Shown here one piece after another: positions 1,140-45,551 of a stretch of 64,000 bases of DNA (positions are counted from its first letter, which is position 1; each line of letters begins with the position of its first letter). Source of the DNA: a phage. The notes beneath the pieces are model-generated. The model was not told where the DNA came from and ran no database searches. It was given only the letters and a program-made list of their open reading frames with translations. Location: the sequence record PQ826431.1. One strand, written 5' to 3'. The translations under genes and the position numbers were made by a program.

Positions 1140-1148
1140 GGAGGGAAT

Positions 1149-3224
1149 GTGGCAAAGAAAAAGGCAGCAGGTAGTTTAGCTGGAGTAGATATTGAAGTAA
1201 AGGCTCAACCAGGTAAACAGACTCTTGCAATGGATTTAATGCCAGAAGTTATGATTTATGGTGGTGCCGCTGGATGTGTTTCTGCTGAAACGGAATATCT
1301 TACAAAAGATGGTTGGAGGCAGATTAGTGAATATTCGGGAGAGGATATTTACCAATACAATCCTAAGAATAAGCGTTTAGAATTGGTAACACCTTATTTT
1401 GTAGAATACGATTTAAATGGAGATAACCTATACAGAATAACAAATGGTGTAGGATTATTCCAAGAACTTAGTATGGAACACCGTTTTGTATTCTATAAGA
1501 AAAAGAAATCAAAGAAACATTTCGAGATTCTTGTAGGAGATCTTATTGCATTACAGCAAATAGGAAAACCCCTGCAAGGTTATGTAGAAAATCCATTCGG
1601 TAAACGTGTTCCTTTTAACATACCTGGTAAAAAGAGCACTTACTTAAAAATACACGAGGTTATTTCAACAGATGATAAGAAATATTGTTTTGAGACTCCA
1701 AGCAGTTATATTGTCTTTAGACGTGGCGATCACTGCTTCGTTACTGGGAATAGCGGCAAGTCTCGTCTGCTATTGCTGAAAGCTTTAAAATACGCCTACA
1801 AAGACCCTTTGTTTGGTGGAATACTTTTCCGTAAGAACACCACTGCTCACCGTAAACCAGGTGGTCTGTTTACAGAAGCAAAACGTTTGTATCTTCCTTT
1901 ACAACCACACGTAAAAGAAAGTACAATGGATATCATTTTTGAAGCCACTGGTGGTGGAACCCTCAAATTTGACCATTTGGAAAATGATAACGTAACAGCA
2001 GAAACAAACCATCAGGGTACACAGTATTCAATGGTAGGTTTTGATGAGTTAACCCACTTCACACAATATGAAATGCTCTATCTTCTGGGACGTATGCGTT
2101 CAGAGTCAGAAACAAGTTTCATGTTGTGCACATGTAACCCTGACGCAGATAGTTGGGTTTTGAATTGGGTGTTACCTTATCTTGATGAGGGTGGTTATCC
2201 TAGAGAAGATATGTGTGGTAAACAAAAATATTTCATCATTGTTAACGATGAACCTGTTTTTGCTGACACACCTGAAGAACTGAAAGAAAAATATCCAGAA
2301 AACTGTTTCATGGAAAACCCTAATACAGGGGAGACAGTTGTTATTGAACCACAAACTTTCGTATTTATTGGTGGGACAATATTTGATAACCCAGAACTAA
2401 TTAGGCTTAACCCTAATTACTTAGCACAGCTTAAATCACAAACAGCTATCAAAAGAGCACAGCTTCTGGACGGTTGTTGGTTTGCACGTATCCAGAAAGA
2501 ATCTTTCTTTCAACGTGAATGGTTACATAAAATATCTTATAAAGATGTTCCTAACAATCTTAAACTAATGCGAGCATGGGATAAAGCTGTTTCAGTTCCT
2601 ACAGAAACTTACCGTTATCCAGACTATACAACATCTGTCAAAATGGGTAAAGACCAAGATGGTAATATCTACATCTTTGGCGACTATGATTATGATGCTG
2701 TGGATGAGAAAAGTAAAATTTTCGGAAGGTTTCGAAGACTACCTGGGGAAAGGGATAACCTGATTCTAAATCAATGTAAGATTGATGGACCAGAAGTTAC
2801 AGTAGTTCTTCCTAAAGACCCATCTGGTGCTGGGACAATAGAATATACAGAGTCTGCAAAGAAACTTATTCTAGAGGGTTTTGTTGTTAAACCAGATGCT
2901 ATGCCAGGCAACAAGAAAAAGCTTCAGCGTTTTATGCCTTTTAGTAGTGCGTGTCAAAACGGTTTTGTTTATATTGTTGAAGATTCTTTCCCTAATGTGG
3001 AAACTTTAACCCACTTTTATAAAGAATTGGAATCTTTCAATGGTGAAAGATCTACAGCCACTATTAAAGATGACATTCCCGATGCTGCTGCCTCTTGTTT
3101 TAATACTCTGTCAAAAGAGAATACTTTCAAAGCAGTAGCTATCCCTACAACAACAAATGCTCCTACAGGATACAGTAGAATGAACAGCGGATTTCACCAA
3201 CCGTATAGTGTCCGTAAAAGATAA
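1149..3224 (+). CDS. terminase large subunit, intein-containing
   Basis: Walker A GGAAG/SGKS split by a Hint domain, Walker B MVGFDE, large ATPase/nuclease-sized protein directly upstream of portal. Confidence 0.8.
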   Translation: MAKKKAAGSLAGVDIEVKAQPGKQTLAMDLMPEVMIYGGAAGCVSAETEYLTKDGWRQISEYSGEDIYQYNPKNKRLELVTPYFVEYDLNGDNLYRITNGVGLFQELSMEHRFVFYKKKKSKKHFEILVGDLIALQQIGKPLQGYVENPFGKRVPFNIPGKKSTYLKIHEVISTDDKKYCFETPSSYIVFRRGDHCFVTGNSGKSRLLLLKALKYAYKDPLFGGILFRKNTTAHRKPGGLFTEAKRLYLPLQPHVKESTMDIIFEATGGGTLKFDHLENDNVTAETNHQGTQYSMVGFDELTHFTQYEMLYLLGRMRSESETSFMLCTCNPDADSWVLNWVLPYLDEGGYPREDMCGKQKYFIIVNDEPVFADTPEELKEKYPENCFMENPNTGETVVIEPQTFVFIGGTIFDNPELIRLNPNYLAQLKSQTAIKRAQLLDGCWFARIQKESFFQREWLHKISYKDVPNNLKLMRAWDKAVSVPTETYRYPDYTTSVKMGKDQDGNIYIFGDYDYDAVDEKSKIFGRFRRLPGERDNLILNQCKIDGPEVTVVLPKDPSGAGTIEYTESAKKLILEGFVVKPDAMPGNKKKLQRFMPFSSACQNGFVYIVEDSFPNVETLTHFYKELESFNGERSTATIKDDIPDAAASCFNTLSKENTFKAVAIPTTTNAPTGYSRMNSGFHQPYSVRKR
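1275..1751 (+). mobile_element. mini-intein (159 aa) inserted in terminase P-loop
   Basis: Starts CVSAETEYLTKDGW (Hint block A), TxxH-like block SMEH, ends ...DHCFVTGN with +1 Ser restoring GxxxxGKS. Confidence 0.7.
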
Positions 3225-41395: not shown

Positions 41396-41607
41396 TAATC
41401 TTCCTCCAGATCAATTTCATTATAACAATGTATGCAGAAACCATCATTGTGCATATGTTGTTCATAAGACATATCTTTACCACAAGACCAACAACGGATA
41501 TCCCCATCGTCCCATTCACGTTCTTCTTCACCTTCAAATTCATCTGGTAGATAAGGCATACCAAAATAATCTAAATCGTAACTCATATCTTCTCCTATCG
41601 AGTCCAC
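41395..41607 (-). CDS. small acidic zinc-ribbon protein
   Basis: CWSCG ... CIHC pairs of cysteines. Confidence 0.35.
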   Translation of the reverse strand: MDSIGEDMSYDLDYFGMPYLPDEFEGEEEREWDDGDIRCWSCGKDMSYEQHMHNDGFCIHCYNEIDLEED

Positions 41608-42191
41608 TCCTTACGTTGTTCAATATGTTCAAGCATATCATTATACAATGTTTTAAGATGTGGAACAACTCTTTGATCTTCTGTTTCAAAAAACTTTGTA
41701 AGCTGCTCTGCTTTAGCTTTTAGCCAACAAAGATGTGCCTCAAGTTCAGTATCAAAACGTCCGAGCGTTATAATACGACCATCTACTTTTATATGGGCTT
41801 TATATTTCTTACGATCTTTTTCGTAATGGAAGCCTACCATAGTGCCATGAGATCTTTTACTTACCCTGTAAGCTAAAAACTTGTTAAGATCCCCTGTTAC
41901 TAAAAGGCAGGTGGCGGGAGAGTAAACTCTCCCTCCTATAATATCTTTATCGAGTTCTAAGTTTTCCCAGTTGTCCCAAGTTTGCAACCAAGCGTAGAAG
42001 TTGGAAAACAGTTTCCATTCTTCACAGACCGTCACTCCGTGATAACAAGGATCACGTTCTTGTTGGCAAGGGGAGTAACACCTCCCCAACATAGCCATCC
42101 ACTTCATATAATGAGGAGTTAATTTCTTACTGCCAGGCAGTGTACTTTCACCCTCCAAATCATTAATACCTTCACCATACACAGTAAGCAT
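41595..42191 (-). CDS. AP2-domain DNA-binding protein, possible homing endonuclease
   Basis: C-terminal GFHYEKDRKKYKAHIKVDGRIITLGRFDTELEAHLCWLKA resembles AP2 fold; adjacent to intein-containing polymerase. Confidence 0.35.
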   Translation of the reverse strand: MLTVYGEGINDLEGESTLPGSKKLTPHYMKWMAMLGRCYSPCQQERDPCYHGVTVCEEWKLFSNFYAWLQTWDNWENLELDKDIIGGRVYSPATCLLVTGDLNKFLAYRVSKRSHGTMVGFHYEKDRKKYKAHIKVDGRIITLGRFDTELEAHLCWLKAKAEQLTKFFETEDQRVVPHLKTLYNDMLEHIEQRKEWTR

Positions 42192-42218: not shown

Positions 42219-45200
42219 TCAATGACATGTGGCCCAGGAATTACCCACATCGTATCCGGCAGTAAGCTGAACGTTAAGATTGTAAAATTCTCCAGCCTTA
42301 GTAACAGCTAAAGCAGCAAGTTCACCTGCCCGACTATAGGCTGTAAACCATCCACCTTTGGGAGATTCATGAATGTTAGCCCAAATTTGCCCTGTCTCTT
42401 TTTCCTTATTATGCTTCCATTCTTCGACTTTAGCAAGGCATTCTTTATCAATTTTCTTTTGTTCTTCAGGATCGTCTACTTTCTTCCAACCTAATGATTC
42501 AGGTGAAAACCATTTGAATTCTACAAGGTTACGAGAAACTTCAAGCTGGGCTTCATCGTGATATGCAATCATTTGTTGCACGAAGTCTTTATTCTTCCAG
42601 TCATCTTTAAAGAAGTCAACACTTAGCCCTTCTTCTTCGATCATGTCATCATAAATAACCATTGCACGTTTAGCACAGATAACCCCACCGCTTTGGAACA
42701 GAGAGTTAAGAATCGCGTGAGCAGAACGAGTAGGAACCTTACGACCGTCAATACCCAAAACATATTGTTTACCAGTCTTAACCCAGAAATCGTTTAAACG
42801 TTCTTTAAGACGCGCCAATGGGAATGCAGCTTCCCAGAAAGCATCGAACACCAGTTGCCCTGTGTATTTATCGCTACCAATTGTTTTAGCAACCTTGTCG
42901 GCTTGTGCACCATAGGTAATACCATACTTAACAGATTTAGCAGGACTACGTTCAAATTTACGTCCAATAGTTTCAGTGATACGTTTTGCCATCATTGTGT
43001 GAACATCATTAGGTTTCTCTAACAACAGAGCGTTACAATATTCGTGTGGCTCCGGCTCGTACCGCCAACAGTTTCCTGTGATGGTAATGCAGTCTTTCTG
43101 ACGCATGACCCACGTACCAAGTTCTGTTTGTGGACACCAAACATCCTCTACACCCCACTCTTCAATAGTCAAACTTTGAACAGGAATGTGAGAGCGGTTA
43201 GTCAATGTTGCCACTTTTACTTTCTGCTCTTTTGTATTGAAAGCTACAGAGATATTGCCTCCATGCACCAGGTACGAGGCAGTTAAAGCTGCTTCAAAAA
43301 GTTCACCTGGGTTCTGCGCCCAACGCCAAACAGGTTTTTGTTTATGTTCGTGCCAGTAACCATCTGCAATCAAGAAACCTTCCAAGAAAGCTACACGCTC
43401 GGCATGAGACATATTAACTACACGTTCTACCCACGGAACATCCCATTTACCTTGTTGAACAGAAGTTAAACTATTTACCTGATCTTGTTCCATGTTAAAT
43501 GGAGCATTACAAATAATGTTATCTCCTGTGCAAAGCTCGGCAGTTGTTCTGACTTTAGGCACATAAGTATTCCCTTTACTACGGGTATTAACATACCAAC
43601 GGTGATCTGCTGTTGCACGGTAAGTGTGTGATTTCCCTTTAATCTCAAACGTCTTACTATTTTTATAGAAGACCTTACCTTTTACTTTAGTCCATTCTTT
43701 CAGACCTGTTTCAGCATTGTACCCTAAAATCTCATCCCCTTCCTTCAGGTCGTGATATCCTACCCAACCTTTACGAGTCAAAGCTTGAGCATCCATCGGC
43801 ACACAGTAATGCGATTCAATTTTTGCTTCCAAAGAGTCGAAGTCGTAACCAATCTGGAAGTATTTAGGAACCTCTACACCAAACAAGTTACGCATCTCCC
43901 ATCCAAACAAAGATGTGACACGAGGAATATTAGCTACAGATCTGTGCTTCATACGAGAGGTTGCAGCATCACATGTAGCGGCTGGGGTAGGAATACGACC
44001 ATCCGCCCTTACTGCGGCTAAGAAACCTTTATCATATTCTTGGTCTTCTTCATCTTCTTCCCAATCAGCACCGCCACCTAAAATAGAGTTCCTACGATGC
44101 TTATACGTTAAGTATTCTACAATCTGTGTAGCATAAGGAAATTTCTCACCCAAAGCTTGCAGGTTAGGACAAATTTCTTTTTCCTGACCTTTGGTAAAAC
44201 ATGGGTTAGTCAATACTTTAAGACCGCGACCCTTACCTTTTGCTATACGCTCTTGAATCTTCCTCTCCAAGGTTTCCGGTGTGCACTCCAGATGATCACA
44301 ACGATCCTGACAAAAATTAGAAGACAGAGTTTGCTCAACGTAAGCTCGAATACCTTTCTGAAGTTCTTCCTCGCTCTTTTTAATCTTGGTGCCAGATTTA
44401 AGAGTCAAGTCTTTATCTTTATATTCAGACGGTACCCAACCTAATCCTACAAGCCAGTTTTTAATATGGGTTGTATCGTTCAATGTTGCAGGAATGTTAG
44501 GATCACATAGAGGCTCATCTGCTGCAACTGGCAGTTTCCACTCTTTCCCCAGCATAACTAACCACCAATCGCCATCCCTCTCTTCCAAATGACCATCATG
44601 TTTCTTAGCAAAATTGATCATATGGTTAGTTGGCTCTAAGTTCTTTTTAATTTGCAACTTAGGTGGAATAAAAGCCTTAAGATAACCTTTTGTTGCTGGT
44701 TTAGGTGGCAAAATAGGCTCAACGAGTAAACGAAGACGCTCCATTTCTGCATCCAAAAAAGCAAGGTTCTCTTCTGCTTGTTTCATGTTAAAAGCAAACC
44801 CACGGTGTTCCTGGCGTGTAATAATGTCTGCTACACGTTGTTCAAGTTCAAATGGACCTTCCCATTTATCATAATCACCCCATTCTTCCATAAGGTAATT
44901 ATATACGCTCGTATTGGCTTTGTTGTCATAGATACAGTAATAAAGCATATCAGCAGCAAAAGTCTTAAATCGATCTTCTTCTGGAATCTCTTTACGGAAA
45001 TCTATTTTTACATCACCCCCTGCCTTTCGAGAAAGTGCTGCCAAGCTATGTCCTGATTTGCCCTCAATCTTTCGATCTGGGTTTAACACTTTACTCAAAA
45101 TCAAGGAGTCAATAAGTTTTACCTTATTTTTGCCCCACGTATTATATTTAACACTGTAATCTAAACCATAAAACAGTTTTGTAGCCAACCAGTCATAGTT

Positions 45201-45551
45201 GATACCGTTGTGAGCCACAGCCATTTCAACCAGATATTCAGGTTTATCTTTAAAATAACCTTCATGATTAATAAAGTCTGGGAAATCTTTTAGTTGAAAA
45301 TGTGTGTAATCTTGCGCCACATACTCTTTAAGAACATATGTGTATTTACCATCTGACTCTTCATAAGGACGCCCATCAAAGATGTATTTAGGGCCATCGT
45401 GGAAAGCTACTATTTCTCCTGTTTCATGGTTCTCTAAGACAATACAGTGCATTTGAAATGTGTCTTTGAGACGATAAGGACTAGCTAAATAATCGATAGT
45501 GTCATTATTCAACAATCCGTTTGCTTCAATATCCCATGTAAACTTACTCAC
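42219..45551 (-). CDS. family A DNA polymerase (3'-5' exo + polymerase), intein-containing
   Basis: Exo I WDIEANGL; motif A GYDFDSLEAKI; motif B RSPAKSVKYGITYG; motif C AYHDEAQLEV; 245 aa insertion between motifs A and B. Confidence 0.85.
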   Translation of the reverse strand: MSKFTWDIEANGLLNNDTIDYLASPYRLKDTFQMHCIVLENHETGEIVAFHDGPKYIFDGRPYEESDGKYTYVLKEYVAQDYTHFQLKDFPDFINHEGYFKDKPEYLVEMAVAHNGINYDWLATKLFYGLDYSVKYNTWGKNKVKLIDSLILSKVLNPDRKIEGKSGHSLAALSRKAGGDVKIDFRKEIPEEDRFKTFAADMLYYCIYDNKANTSVYNYLMEEWGDYDKWEGPFELEQRVADIITRQEHRGFAFNMKQAEENLAFLDAEMERLRLLVEPILPPKPATKGYLKAFIPPKLQIKKNLEPTNHMINFAKKHDGHLEERDGDWWLVMLGKEWKLPVAADEPLCDPNIPATLNDTTHIKNWLVGLGWVPSEYKDKDLTLKSGTKIKKSEEELQKGIRAYVEQTLSSNFCQDRCDHLECTPETLERKIQERIAKGKGRGLKVLTNPCFTKGQEKEICPNLQALGEKFPYATQIVEYLTYKHRRNSILGGGADWEEDEEDQEYDKGFLAAVRADGRIPTPAATCDAATSRMKHRSVANIPRVTSLFGWEMRNLFGVEVPKYFQIGYDFDSLEAKIESHYCVPMDAQALTRKGWVGYHDLKEGDEILGYNAETGLKEWTKVKGKVFYKNSKTFEIKGKSHTYRATADHRWYVNTRSKGNTYVPKVRTTAELCTGDNIICNAPFNMEQDQVNSLTSVQQGKWDVPWVERVVNMSHAERVAFLEGFLIADGYWHEHKQKPVWRWAQNPGELFEAALTASYLVHGGNISVAFNTKEQKVKVATLTNRSHIPVQSLTIEEWGVEDVWCPQTELGTWVMRQKDCITITGNCWRYEPEPHEYCNALLLEKPNDVHTMMAKRITETIGRKFERSPAKSVKYGITYGAQADKVAKTIGSDKYTGQLVFDAFWEAAFPLARLKERLNDFWVKTGKQYVLGIDGRKVPTRSAHAILNSLFQSGGVICAKRAMVIYDDMIEEEGLSVDFFKDDWKNKDFVQQMIAYHDEAQLEVSRNLVEFKWFSPESLGWKKVDDPEEQKKIDKECLAKVEEWKHNKEKETGQIWANIHESPKGGWFTAYSRAGELAALAVTKAGEFYNLNVQLTAGYDVGNSWATCH
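43071..43805 (-). mobile_element. intein (245 aa) in DNA polymerase with LAGLIDADG-like motif
   Basis: Starts CVPMDAQALTRKGW, block B TADH, LAGLIDADG-like AFLEGFLIADGY (about 43356-43391), ends ...CITITGN with +1 Cys; boundaries checked against codons. Confidence 0.7.

Follow-up and report, generated by a model that had tools for sequence, protein, structure and literature searches.

To our knowledge, inteins are taught as elements that either lack an endonuclease or carry a monomeric one with two LAGLIDADG motifs, with intermediate sizes taken as a sign of decay. The canonical bifunctional inteins PI-SceI, PI-PfuI, PI-PkoII and TliVMA have two motifs per chain (blocks C and E), act as monomers and cut asymmetric sites. 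The enzymes I-CreI, I-MsoI and I-CeuI, each with one LAGLIDADG helix, are free-standing, intron-encoded proteins of ~160–220 residues that cut pseudo-palindromic sites, and homodimers are the working form of single-motif LAGLIDADG enzymes (PMC2655683). Here we analyze a 245-residue insert in the family A (T7-like) DNA polymerase of a phage, taken from a stretch of 64,000 nucleotides (nt) (PQ826431.1; the whole stretch is called the window, and coordinates are positions in it). Unlike the canonical inteins, this element lacks the block C/D half of the endonuclease and carries an E/H-like half alone. We put the probability that it is a mobile phage intein with a working, homodimeric endonuclease at roughly 45–50%.

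The 1,110-residue open reading frame (ORF) matches the Pfam model DNA_pol_A (E = 1e-11) and, with the 245 residues taken out, aligns with T7 DNA polymerase (E = 3e-17). A sequence-only reading had placed an intein between polymerase motifs A and B, and its limits proved exact: residues 583–827 of the ORF, followed by Cys828, with the start CVPMDAQALTRKGW, the internal stretch AFLEGFLIADGY and the end ITGN all found in the translation. That reading named no strand; the insert is encoded by the minus strand, whereas translating the interval on the plus strand gives many stop codons. Motif A (GYDFDSLEAKI, residues 568–578) aligns over T7 GIDASGLELRC, with Asp570 opposite the catalytic Asp475 of T7 DNA polymerase, and motif B (RSPAKSVKYGITYG, residues 868–881) aligns over T7 RDNAKTFIYGFLYG (K522, Y526). 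The insert begins 5 residues past motif A, by the motif limits of the sequence-only reading, and ends 40 residues before motif B, with the insertion point mapping between F487 and M488 of T7. The polymerase is 99.5–99.7% identical to those of phAPEC8-like coliphages of the genus Phapecoctavirus (EF1-1, anhysbys, ZCKP1 and ESCO5), to which this phage belongs, and 83% identical over the whole protein to those of phi92-like phages (Justusliebigvirus).

An intein-less allele exists in a close relative. The polymerase of phage ESCO13 (865 residues) equals the window protein minus exactly residues 583–827 (735 nt), giving the protein junction KIESHY/CWRYEPEP and the DNA junction ...GAGTCGCATTAT/TGTTGGCGCTACGAACC..., where the slash marks the insertion point. 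Matches to phAPEC8_ev052 and others resemble that to ESCO13, in two pieces covering 78% of the query. The extein DNA of the window and ESCO13 aligns without gaps over 2,598 nt with 73 differences (97% identical). Because the ESCO13 gene is the window gene minus exactly 735 nt, a chance resemblance to an intein is excluded. The insert also carries all splicing blocks, namely Cys1, block B TADH (T65, H68), block F DVWCP, block G ITITGN and N245, followed by Cys+1; its predicted structure shows a Hint fold, and the records of two sister phages annotate it as an intein.

It could be supposed instead that the 245 residues are structural, inserted into the fingers subdomain in one lineage and retained in the mature polymerase, and the curated intein models, which stay below threshold, would agree. 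Pfam Intein_splicing matches the insert at E = 0.007 and LAGLIDADG_3 at E = 0.15, NCBIfam and PHROGs return zero matches, and a search of PDB sequences gave nothing better than E > 0.07. With the curated libraries weak or silent, the insert is identified from sequence comparison and from structure, and these argue against a structural insertion. Homologous polymerases do not keep the 245 residues as a conserved structural domain, since polymerases 99.7% identical are precisely without them; the insert has the full set of splicing residues and a Hint fold, with Cys+1 behind it; and the same element is found in unrelated host proteins (a primase-helicase, an adaptor protein and a terminase). A structural insertion is thus effectively excluded, and the comparison leaves the insert almost certainly an intein, and probably a self-splicing one.

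The sequence-only reading had also called the region between the two Hint parts a LAGLIDADG remnant. One of the two canonical halves is indeed what is present, but this half is complete, well folded, conserved and under purifying selection. The model shows an alpha-beta-beta-alpha-beta-beta core of ~80 residues, with small residues at positions 139, 143 and 147 of the LAGLIDADG helix. Like I-CreI, I-MsoI and I-CeuI, the domain has one such helix ending in Asp-Gly, the same order of core elements and a Gln right after the second strand; it differs from the I-CreI type in being embedded in an intein, in its short core and in a presumed target without clear symmetry. Gln164 stands at the end of the second strand, right before helix 2, a place equivalent to that of Gln47 in the I-CreI active site. 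When PDB sequences were searched with a profile of the domain, the best match was I-DmoI, pairing Asp with D21 and Gln with Q42, at a weak E of about 0.09.

The half-domain is the counterpart of blocks E/H, which form the second half of two-motif intein endonucleases. Among two-motif relatives (n = 25, 309–343 residues), only the second half is strongly similar to it (E from 1e-9 to 1e-17). When the window intein is aligned with the 324-residue intein of phage nepoznato, the first half is gapped, with a 20-residue linker in its place that is poorly ordered in the predicted structure (predicted local distance difference test, pLDDT, below 50 at residues 109–120). No second LAGLIDADG half able to pair with the domain was found in the 64-kb window.

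This architecture proved to be widespread. Searched exhaustively with HMMER, a set of 1.84 billion representatives yielded 2,205 proteins at E ≤ 1e-3, of which 794 reached E ≤ 1e-10; a word-indexed protein search recovered only 9 relatives. Architectures were counted in the 154 best matches with both intein ends, out of the 2,205: 116 are inteins of 235–264 residues that share this architecture and bear the signature CVPxD...ITITGN followed by C, S or T, ~25 are two-motif forms and five are mini-inteins, four of 138–163 residues and one of 210. Host proteins are phage-like and include family A polymerases (at several sites, three of them at the site of the window intein), a DnaB/Toprim primase-helicase, an SU10-type adaptor and unknown proteins, with the one-motif architecture spanning at least five insertion sites and several host proteins.

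Residue conservation was read from 117 aligned one-motif inteins, each a different 50%-identity cluster, drawn from the similarity-ranked top ~150 of the 2,205. The splicing residues C1, H68, C224, T243 and N245 are present in all 117, and T65, W70 and G244 in 116. In the half-domain, position 148 is acidic in 116 members (Asp in 107, Glu in 9); 116 retain Gly149, and every one of the 117 has Gln164. Only Gly, Ser or Ala occurs at position 143, and 87 members have a basic residue at position 204. In canonical LAGLIDADG enzymes the beta-hairpin surface touches DNA. The hairpins of this family are hypervariable across insertion sites, with a ratio of within-site to between-site likeness of 2.1, versus 1.3–1.4 for the Hint parts, which is consistent with target-specific recognition, although fast-evolving positions reach such ratios more easily.

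A dead domain should shed its catalytic residues and gain non-synonymous changes. Non-synonymous divergence (dN) was compared by region with the allele of Klebsiella phage KP13-16, from which the window intein is saturated at synonymous sites (124 of 155 differ). The half-domain has the lowest value of the intein regions (0.032; 6 non-synonymous differences), followed by the Hint N-terminal part (0.047), the Hint C-terminal part (0.095) and the linker (0.40); the half-domain is thus under strong purifying selection. These figures bear directly on the possibility that the intein is splicing-competent with a dead endonuclease, one half being left after deletion of the other, and that it has been inherited vertically and spread passively by recombination. 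Such a history would account for the single motif, for the disordered and fast-evolving linker where a first half would lie and for the target-site symmetry that was not found; complete loss of the central domain also occurs in relatives, and interleaving of architectures in a Hint-only tree, itself poorly resolved, would fit repeated deletion. It sits poorly with the retention of Asp148, Gly149 and Gln164 in 116–117 of 117 distant members, with the lowest dN falling in the half-domain despite synonymous saturation and with an architecture that persists at at least five insertion sites in several host proteins. We regard a dead remnant as unlikely; the half-domain is probably conserved and working, rather than decaying.

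Three further observations concern the history of the domain. Two metagenomic proteins, P0002 (344 residues) and P0005 (262 residues), have near-identical hosts, the same insertion site and a Hint-part distance of 0.04, and the first carries a 245-residue one-motif intein and the second a 163-residue mini-intein; the pair suggests that the entire half-domain was recently and cleanly deleted. The Hint-only neighbor-joining tree (137 columns, 40–60% distance) is unresolved and mixes one-motif with two-motif inteins, implying at least 16 architecture changes by parsimony. Finally, a 1,777-nt Logan contig (L007, from SRR24775678) holds a polymerase fragment with a 77%-identical intein allele at the same site and several frameshifts, which could be assembly errors or mark a decaying copy; it was excluded from the rate estimates.

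The distribution of the intein points to mobility. It occurs at the window site in 35 records in all and is missing from other near-identical polymerases: among 58 Phapecoctavirus records whose polymerase is at least 99% identical, 22 have it, another 12 have a different intein and the rest have neither. Between the window and phage cardinal (Justusliebigvirus), the fraction of synonymous sites that differ is 0.17 in the intein, as compared with 0.71 in the 600 nt upstream and 0.62 in the 600 nt downstream; the intein value against phi92 is 0.33, and 62–71% of synonymous sites in the polymerase flanks differ from cardinal and phi92. Because the intein is far less diverged than its flanks, it appears to have moved between the two genera long after the polymerases diverged. 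Against KP13-16, intein and flanks are equally saturated, which is the expectation for co-descent.

Differences from ESCO13 are also clustered around the intein and are almost wholly synonymous. Counted in junction-anchored ungapped comparisons, as four-way nucleotide alignment is unreliable close to the junctions, 33 of the 73 extein differences fall within −139 to +171 of the junction (10 in the last 140 nt upstream and 23 in the first 171 nt downstream), with the overall extein difference put at about 1.5%. Only one amino-acid difference from ESCO13 lies within 600 nt on either side of the intein, and 16 of the 27 downstream differing sites agree with Justusliebigvirus alleles. The cluster looks like a co-conversion tract left by double-strand-break repair.

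A second mobile-element candidate lies close by. A free-standing gene of 198 residues resembling HNH homing endonucleases (phrog_953, E = 3e-73) lies 27 nt downstream of the polymerase; ESCO13 and nepoznato lack it, and the best full-length copies that relatives have there reach only 75–92% identity. Beside it, the last 55 nt of the polymerase gene hold 8 of the 73 extein differences from ESCO13, which looks like a separate conversion tract from the HNH element. The gene matters for the reading in which the half-domain is no nuclease and serves in DNA binding, targeting or regulation of splicing, or as a helper to a separate nuclease, such as the HNH product, that mobilizes the intein. A helper role is weakened by the lack of linkage between the two elements: many phages, such as anhysbys and ZCKP1, have the intein without a close HNH copy, and many others, such as alia, PHB05 and JohannJBalmer, have the HNH gene without the intein. 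Moreover, ~600 nt of ESCO13-like sequence separate the intein tract from the HNH-adjacent 3' end, and because the polymerase between them is ~99% identical to ESCO13, the two tracts would be separate events. Binding alone, for its part, needs neither an invariant Gln nor an acidic residue at canonical active-site positions. We consider a non-nuclease role improbable, and collaborative homing driven by the adjacent HNH gene was rejected as the main explanation, given elements unlinked across genomes and separate conversion tracts.

Under the homodimeric-endonuclease reading, which we favor over the others, the 1,110-residue precursor would be inactive, since the intein interrupts its fingers subdomain and parts motif A from the O-helix (motif B). 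Next, the Hint domain (intein residues 1–104 and 206–245) would excise itself and ligate ...KIESHY to CWRYEPEP..., producing an 865-residue enzyme identical to that encoded directly by intein-less phages. Two freed 28-kDa inteins would then pair through their LAGLIDADG helices, as I-CreI does, and form an active site with two Asp residues. In a co-infecting phage without the intein, this dimer would cleave the polymerase gene near CATTAT/TGTTGG, and recombinational repair would copy the intein in, together with ~150 bp of flank on each side. There is an engineered precedent for joining the two activities, an intein with a grafted homing endonuclease (Fitzsimons-Hall et al. 2002, in the citing passage of PMC3943268). 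By analogy, the fusion of an intein with an added endonuclease can work. The graft of 2002 reportedly used I-CreI.

Several points weigh against this reading, besides the weak or absent library matches. A simple homodimer would prefer a pseudo-palindromic target, and no clear pseudo-palindrome was found in the intein-less target at the 29 centers tried; the best half-site match was 6 of 11 at −7, a score reached by 3.8% of gene positions. Choosing family members by similarity partly favors conservation of the central domain among the 117. P0005, set beside P0002, shows that this domain can be deleted outright. Ordinary recombination between co-infecting phages could give both the flank cluster and the low divergence of the intein.

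The splicing chemistry of the family may be a hybrid. The triplet of class 3 inteins, at the positions defined previously (PMC2807308, PMC5050341, PMC7891396), is complete: Trp at block B:12 (W70, 116 of 117), Cys at block F:4 (C224, 117 of 117) and Thr at block G:5 (T243, 117 of 117). Class 3 inteins, such as those of mycobacteriophage Bethlehem DnaB and AceL NrdHF, are defined by the lack of an N-terminal nucleophile (no Cys, Ser or Thr at position 1), whereas Cys1 is present in all 117 members here. By 2009 only three inteins with the Trp-Cys-Thr (WCT) triplet and Ser1 or Cys1 were known (PMC2807308). In the window intein, the penultimate His of block G is absent, with Gly244 in its place (Gly in 116 of 117 members); its absence does not speak against an intein, since in phage inteins another residue, sometimes Gly, often stands in for that His (PMC5050341). 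Because Cys1 is combined with a full Trp70-Cys224-Thr243 triplet and no penultimate His, splicing could start with an attack by Cys1, as in class 1, or by Cys224, as in class 3. Some inteins with such a combination are said to take the class 3 route still (reportedly Tori and Perler, 2011).

Coordinates of these and of neighboring features are collected in Table 1.

Table 1. Features of the polymerase locus, and other inteins of the same clade. Positions are in the window unless another record is named; aa, amino acids.
Feature	Position	Strand	Details
Family A (T7-like) DNA polymerase precursor	42219..45551	-	1,110 aa with intein; GTG start; stop codon 42219-42221; from ORF list, Pfam and T7 alignment
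N-extein	43806..45551	-	aa 1-582; C-terminal end ...GYDFDSLEAKIESHY; motif A at 43818-43850
Intein	43071..43805	-	245 aa; precursor aa 583-827
Hint N-terminal part	43494..43805	-	intein aa 1-104; Cys1; block B TADHRW (T65, H68, W70) at 43596-43613
Linker	43434..43493	-	intein aa 105-124; poorly ordered; where two-motif relatives hold the first LAGLIDADG half
Single LAGLIDADG half-domain	43191..43433	-	intein aa 125-205; helix AFLEGFLIADG at 43359-43391 (D148/G149); two beta-hairpins; invariant Q164
Hint C-terminal part	43071..43190	-	intein aa 206-245; block F DVWCP (C224) at 43131-43145; block G ITITGN (T243, G244, N245)
C-extein	42219..43070	-	aa 828-1110; first residue Cys+1 (CWRYEPEPHEY...); motif B at 42909-42950
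Clustered differences from ESCO13 (resembling a co-conversion tract)	42900..43944	-	centered on intein; ~140 nt upstream, 171 nt downstream
Differences from ESCO13 beside HNH gene	42219..42273	-	last 55 nt of polymerase gene
HNH homing-endonuclease-like gene	41595..42191	-	198 aa
Second intein (mini-intein)	1275..1751	+	159 aa; in ORF 1140-3221
324-aa intein of nepoznato	MN850571 3001..3972		equivalent window position about 42921/42922

Other inteins of the same clade help to place this one. Phages nepoznato, ukendt, nieznany, phiWec187 and AV126 carry the 324-residue intein mentioned above in the same host gene (CVPxD...TLTGN followed by C; 32% identical). In contrast to the window intein, it is inserted within motif B (KSVKYG/CTYG), 45 residues downstream of the window site, and has two LAGLIDADG motifs (LGWLLSDGYY and LEAFWMADGH) rather than one. 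It is found in 12 records, as against 35 for the window intein, with zero overlap. At the window site, nepoznato has Thr at +1 and diverged neighboring codons (TWRYDNPDHAY vs CWRYEPEPHEY), and its allele may be immune to the window intein.

The window itself contains a second intein, a mini-intein of 159 residues from the same clade (CVSAETEYLTKDGW...HCFVTGN followed by S), which interrupts the P-loop (Walker A) of the large terminase subunit (YGGAAG/intein/SGKS). It has no endonuclease domain, and it keeps the block F Cys and block G Thr, with Phe replacing the class 3 Trp. Four 146-kb records labeled 'Campylobacter phage' (A150, A145, C3 and A110a; MG065639, MG065645, MG065656 and MG065689) have an intein in the polymerase that shares 99.7% identity with the one in E. 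coli Phapecoctavirus phages, and their host labels look doubtful.

The intein as such is ordinary and of a known kind. It is already annotated in two GenBank records of Justusliebigvirus phages, MZ501100 (Escherichia phage PaulScherrer, Bas60, 'intein-containing DNA polymerase precursor'), from the BASEL collection (PMC8594841), and PQ821640 (phage SD2). These inteins have the same site and the same 245 residues, at 97.6% amino-acid identity to the one in the window, which is from Phapecoctavirus, and neither record annotates the endonuclease architecture or the splicing class. The intein mat_peptide of MZ501100 (2232-2966) is one codon off (VPMD...GNC, which should be CVPMD...GN). Nearly all other records name the gene only 'DNA polymerase I', and a 2024 paper says that none had yet been described in coliphages (PMC11162368).

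The literature searched held nothing specific on single-motif or dimeric LAGLIDADG inteins or on inteins of phi92- or phAPEC8-like phages, and no natural intein with a single-motif homodimeric endonuclease. Nor were the conserved one-motif architecture and the combination of Cys1 with WCT found there as a large phage family, in a searchable set that is incomplete and does not prove novelty. We suggest, tentatively and at somewhat less than even odds, that these ~250-residue phage inteins are the first natural ones with a homodimeric single-motif LAGLIDADG endonuclease together with hybrid Cys1/block F Cys splicing.

A large family under selection that has precisely one half-domain, its catalytic residues intact, calls into question the view of intermediate-sized inteins as products of decay. 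An intein left unmarked in 1,110-residue 'DNA polymerase I' records inflates apparent divergence in polymerase-based phage taxonomy. If the homodimeric reading is true, these phages would offer a natural example of a dimeric intein endonuclease and a source of compact (245-residue), probably self-splicing, sequence-specific nucleases from easily grown coliphages, and natural intein-plus and intein-minus strains exist for homing crosses. A family of hundreds of 50%-identity clusters, spread over phage polymerases, primase-helicases and structural proteins, would then have been overlooked because it escapes the curated models for inteins and for LAGLIDADG domains.

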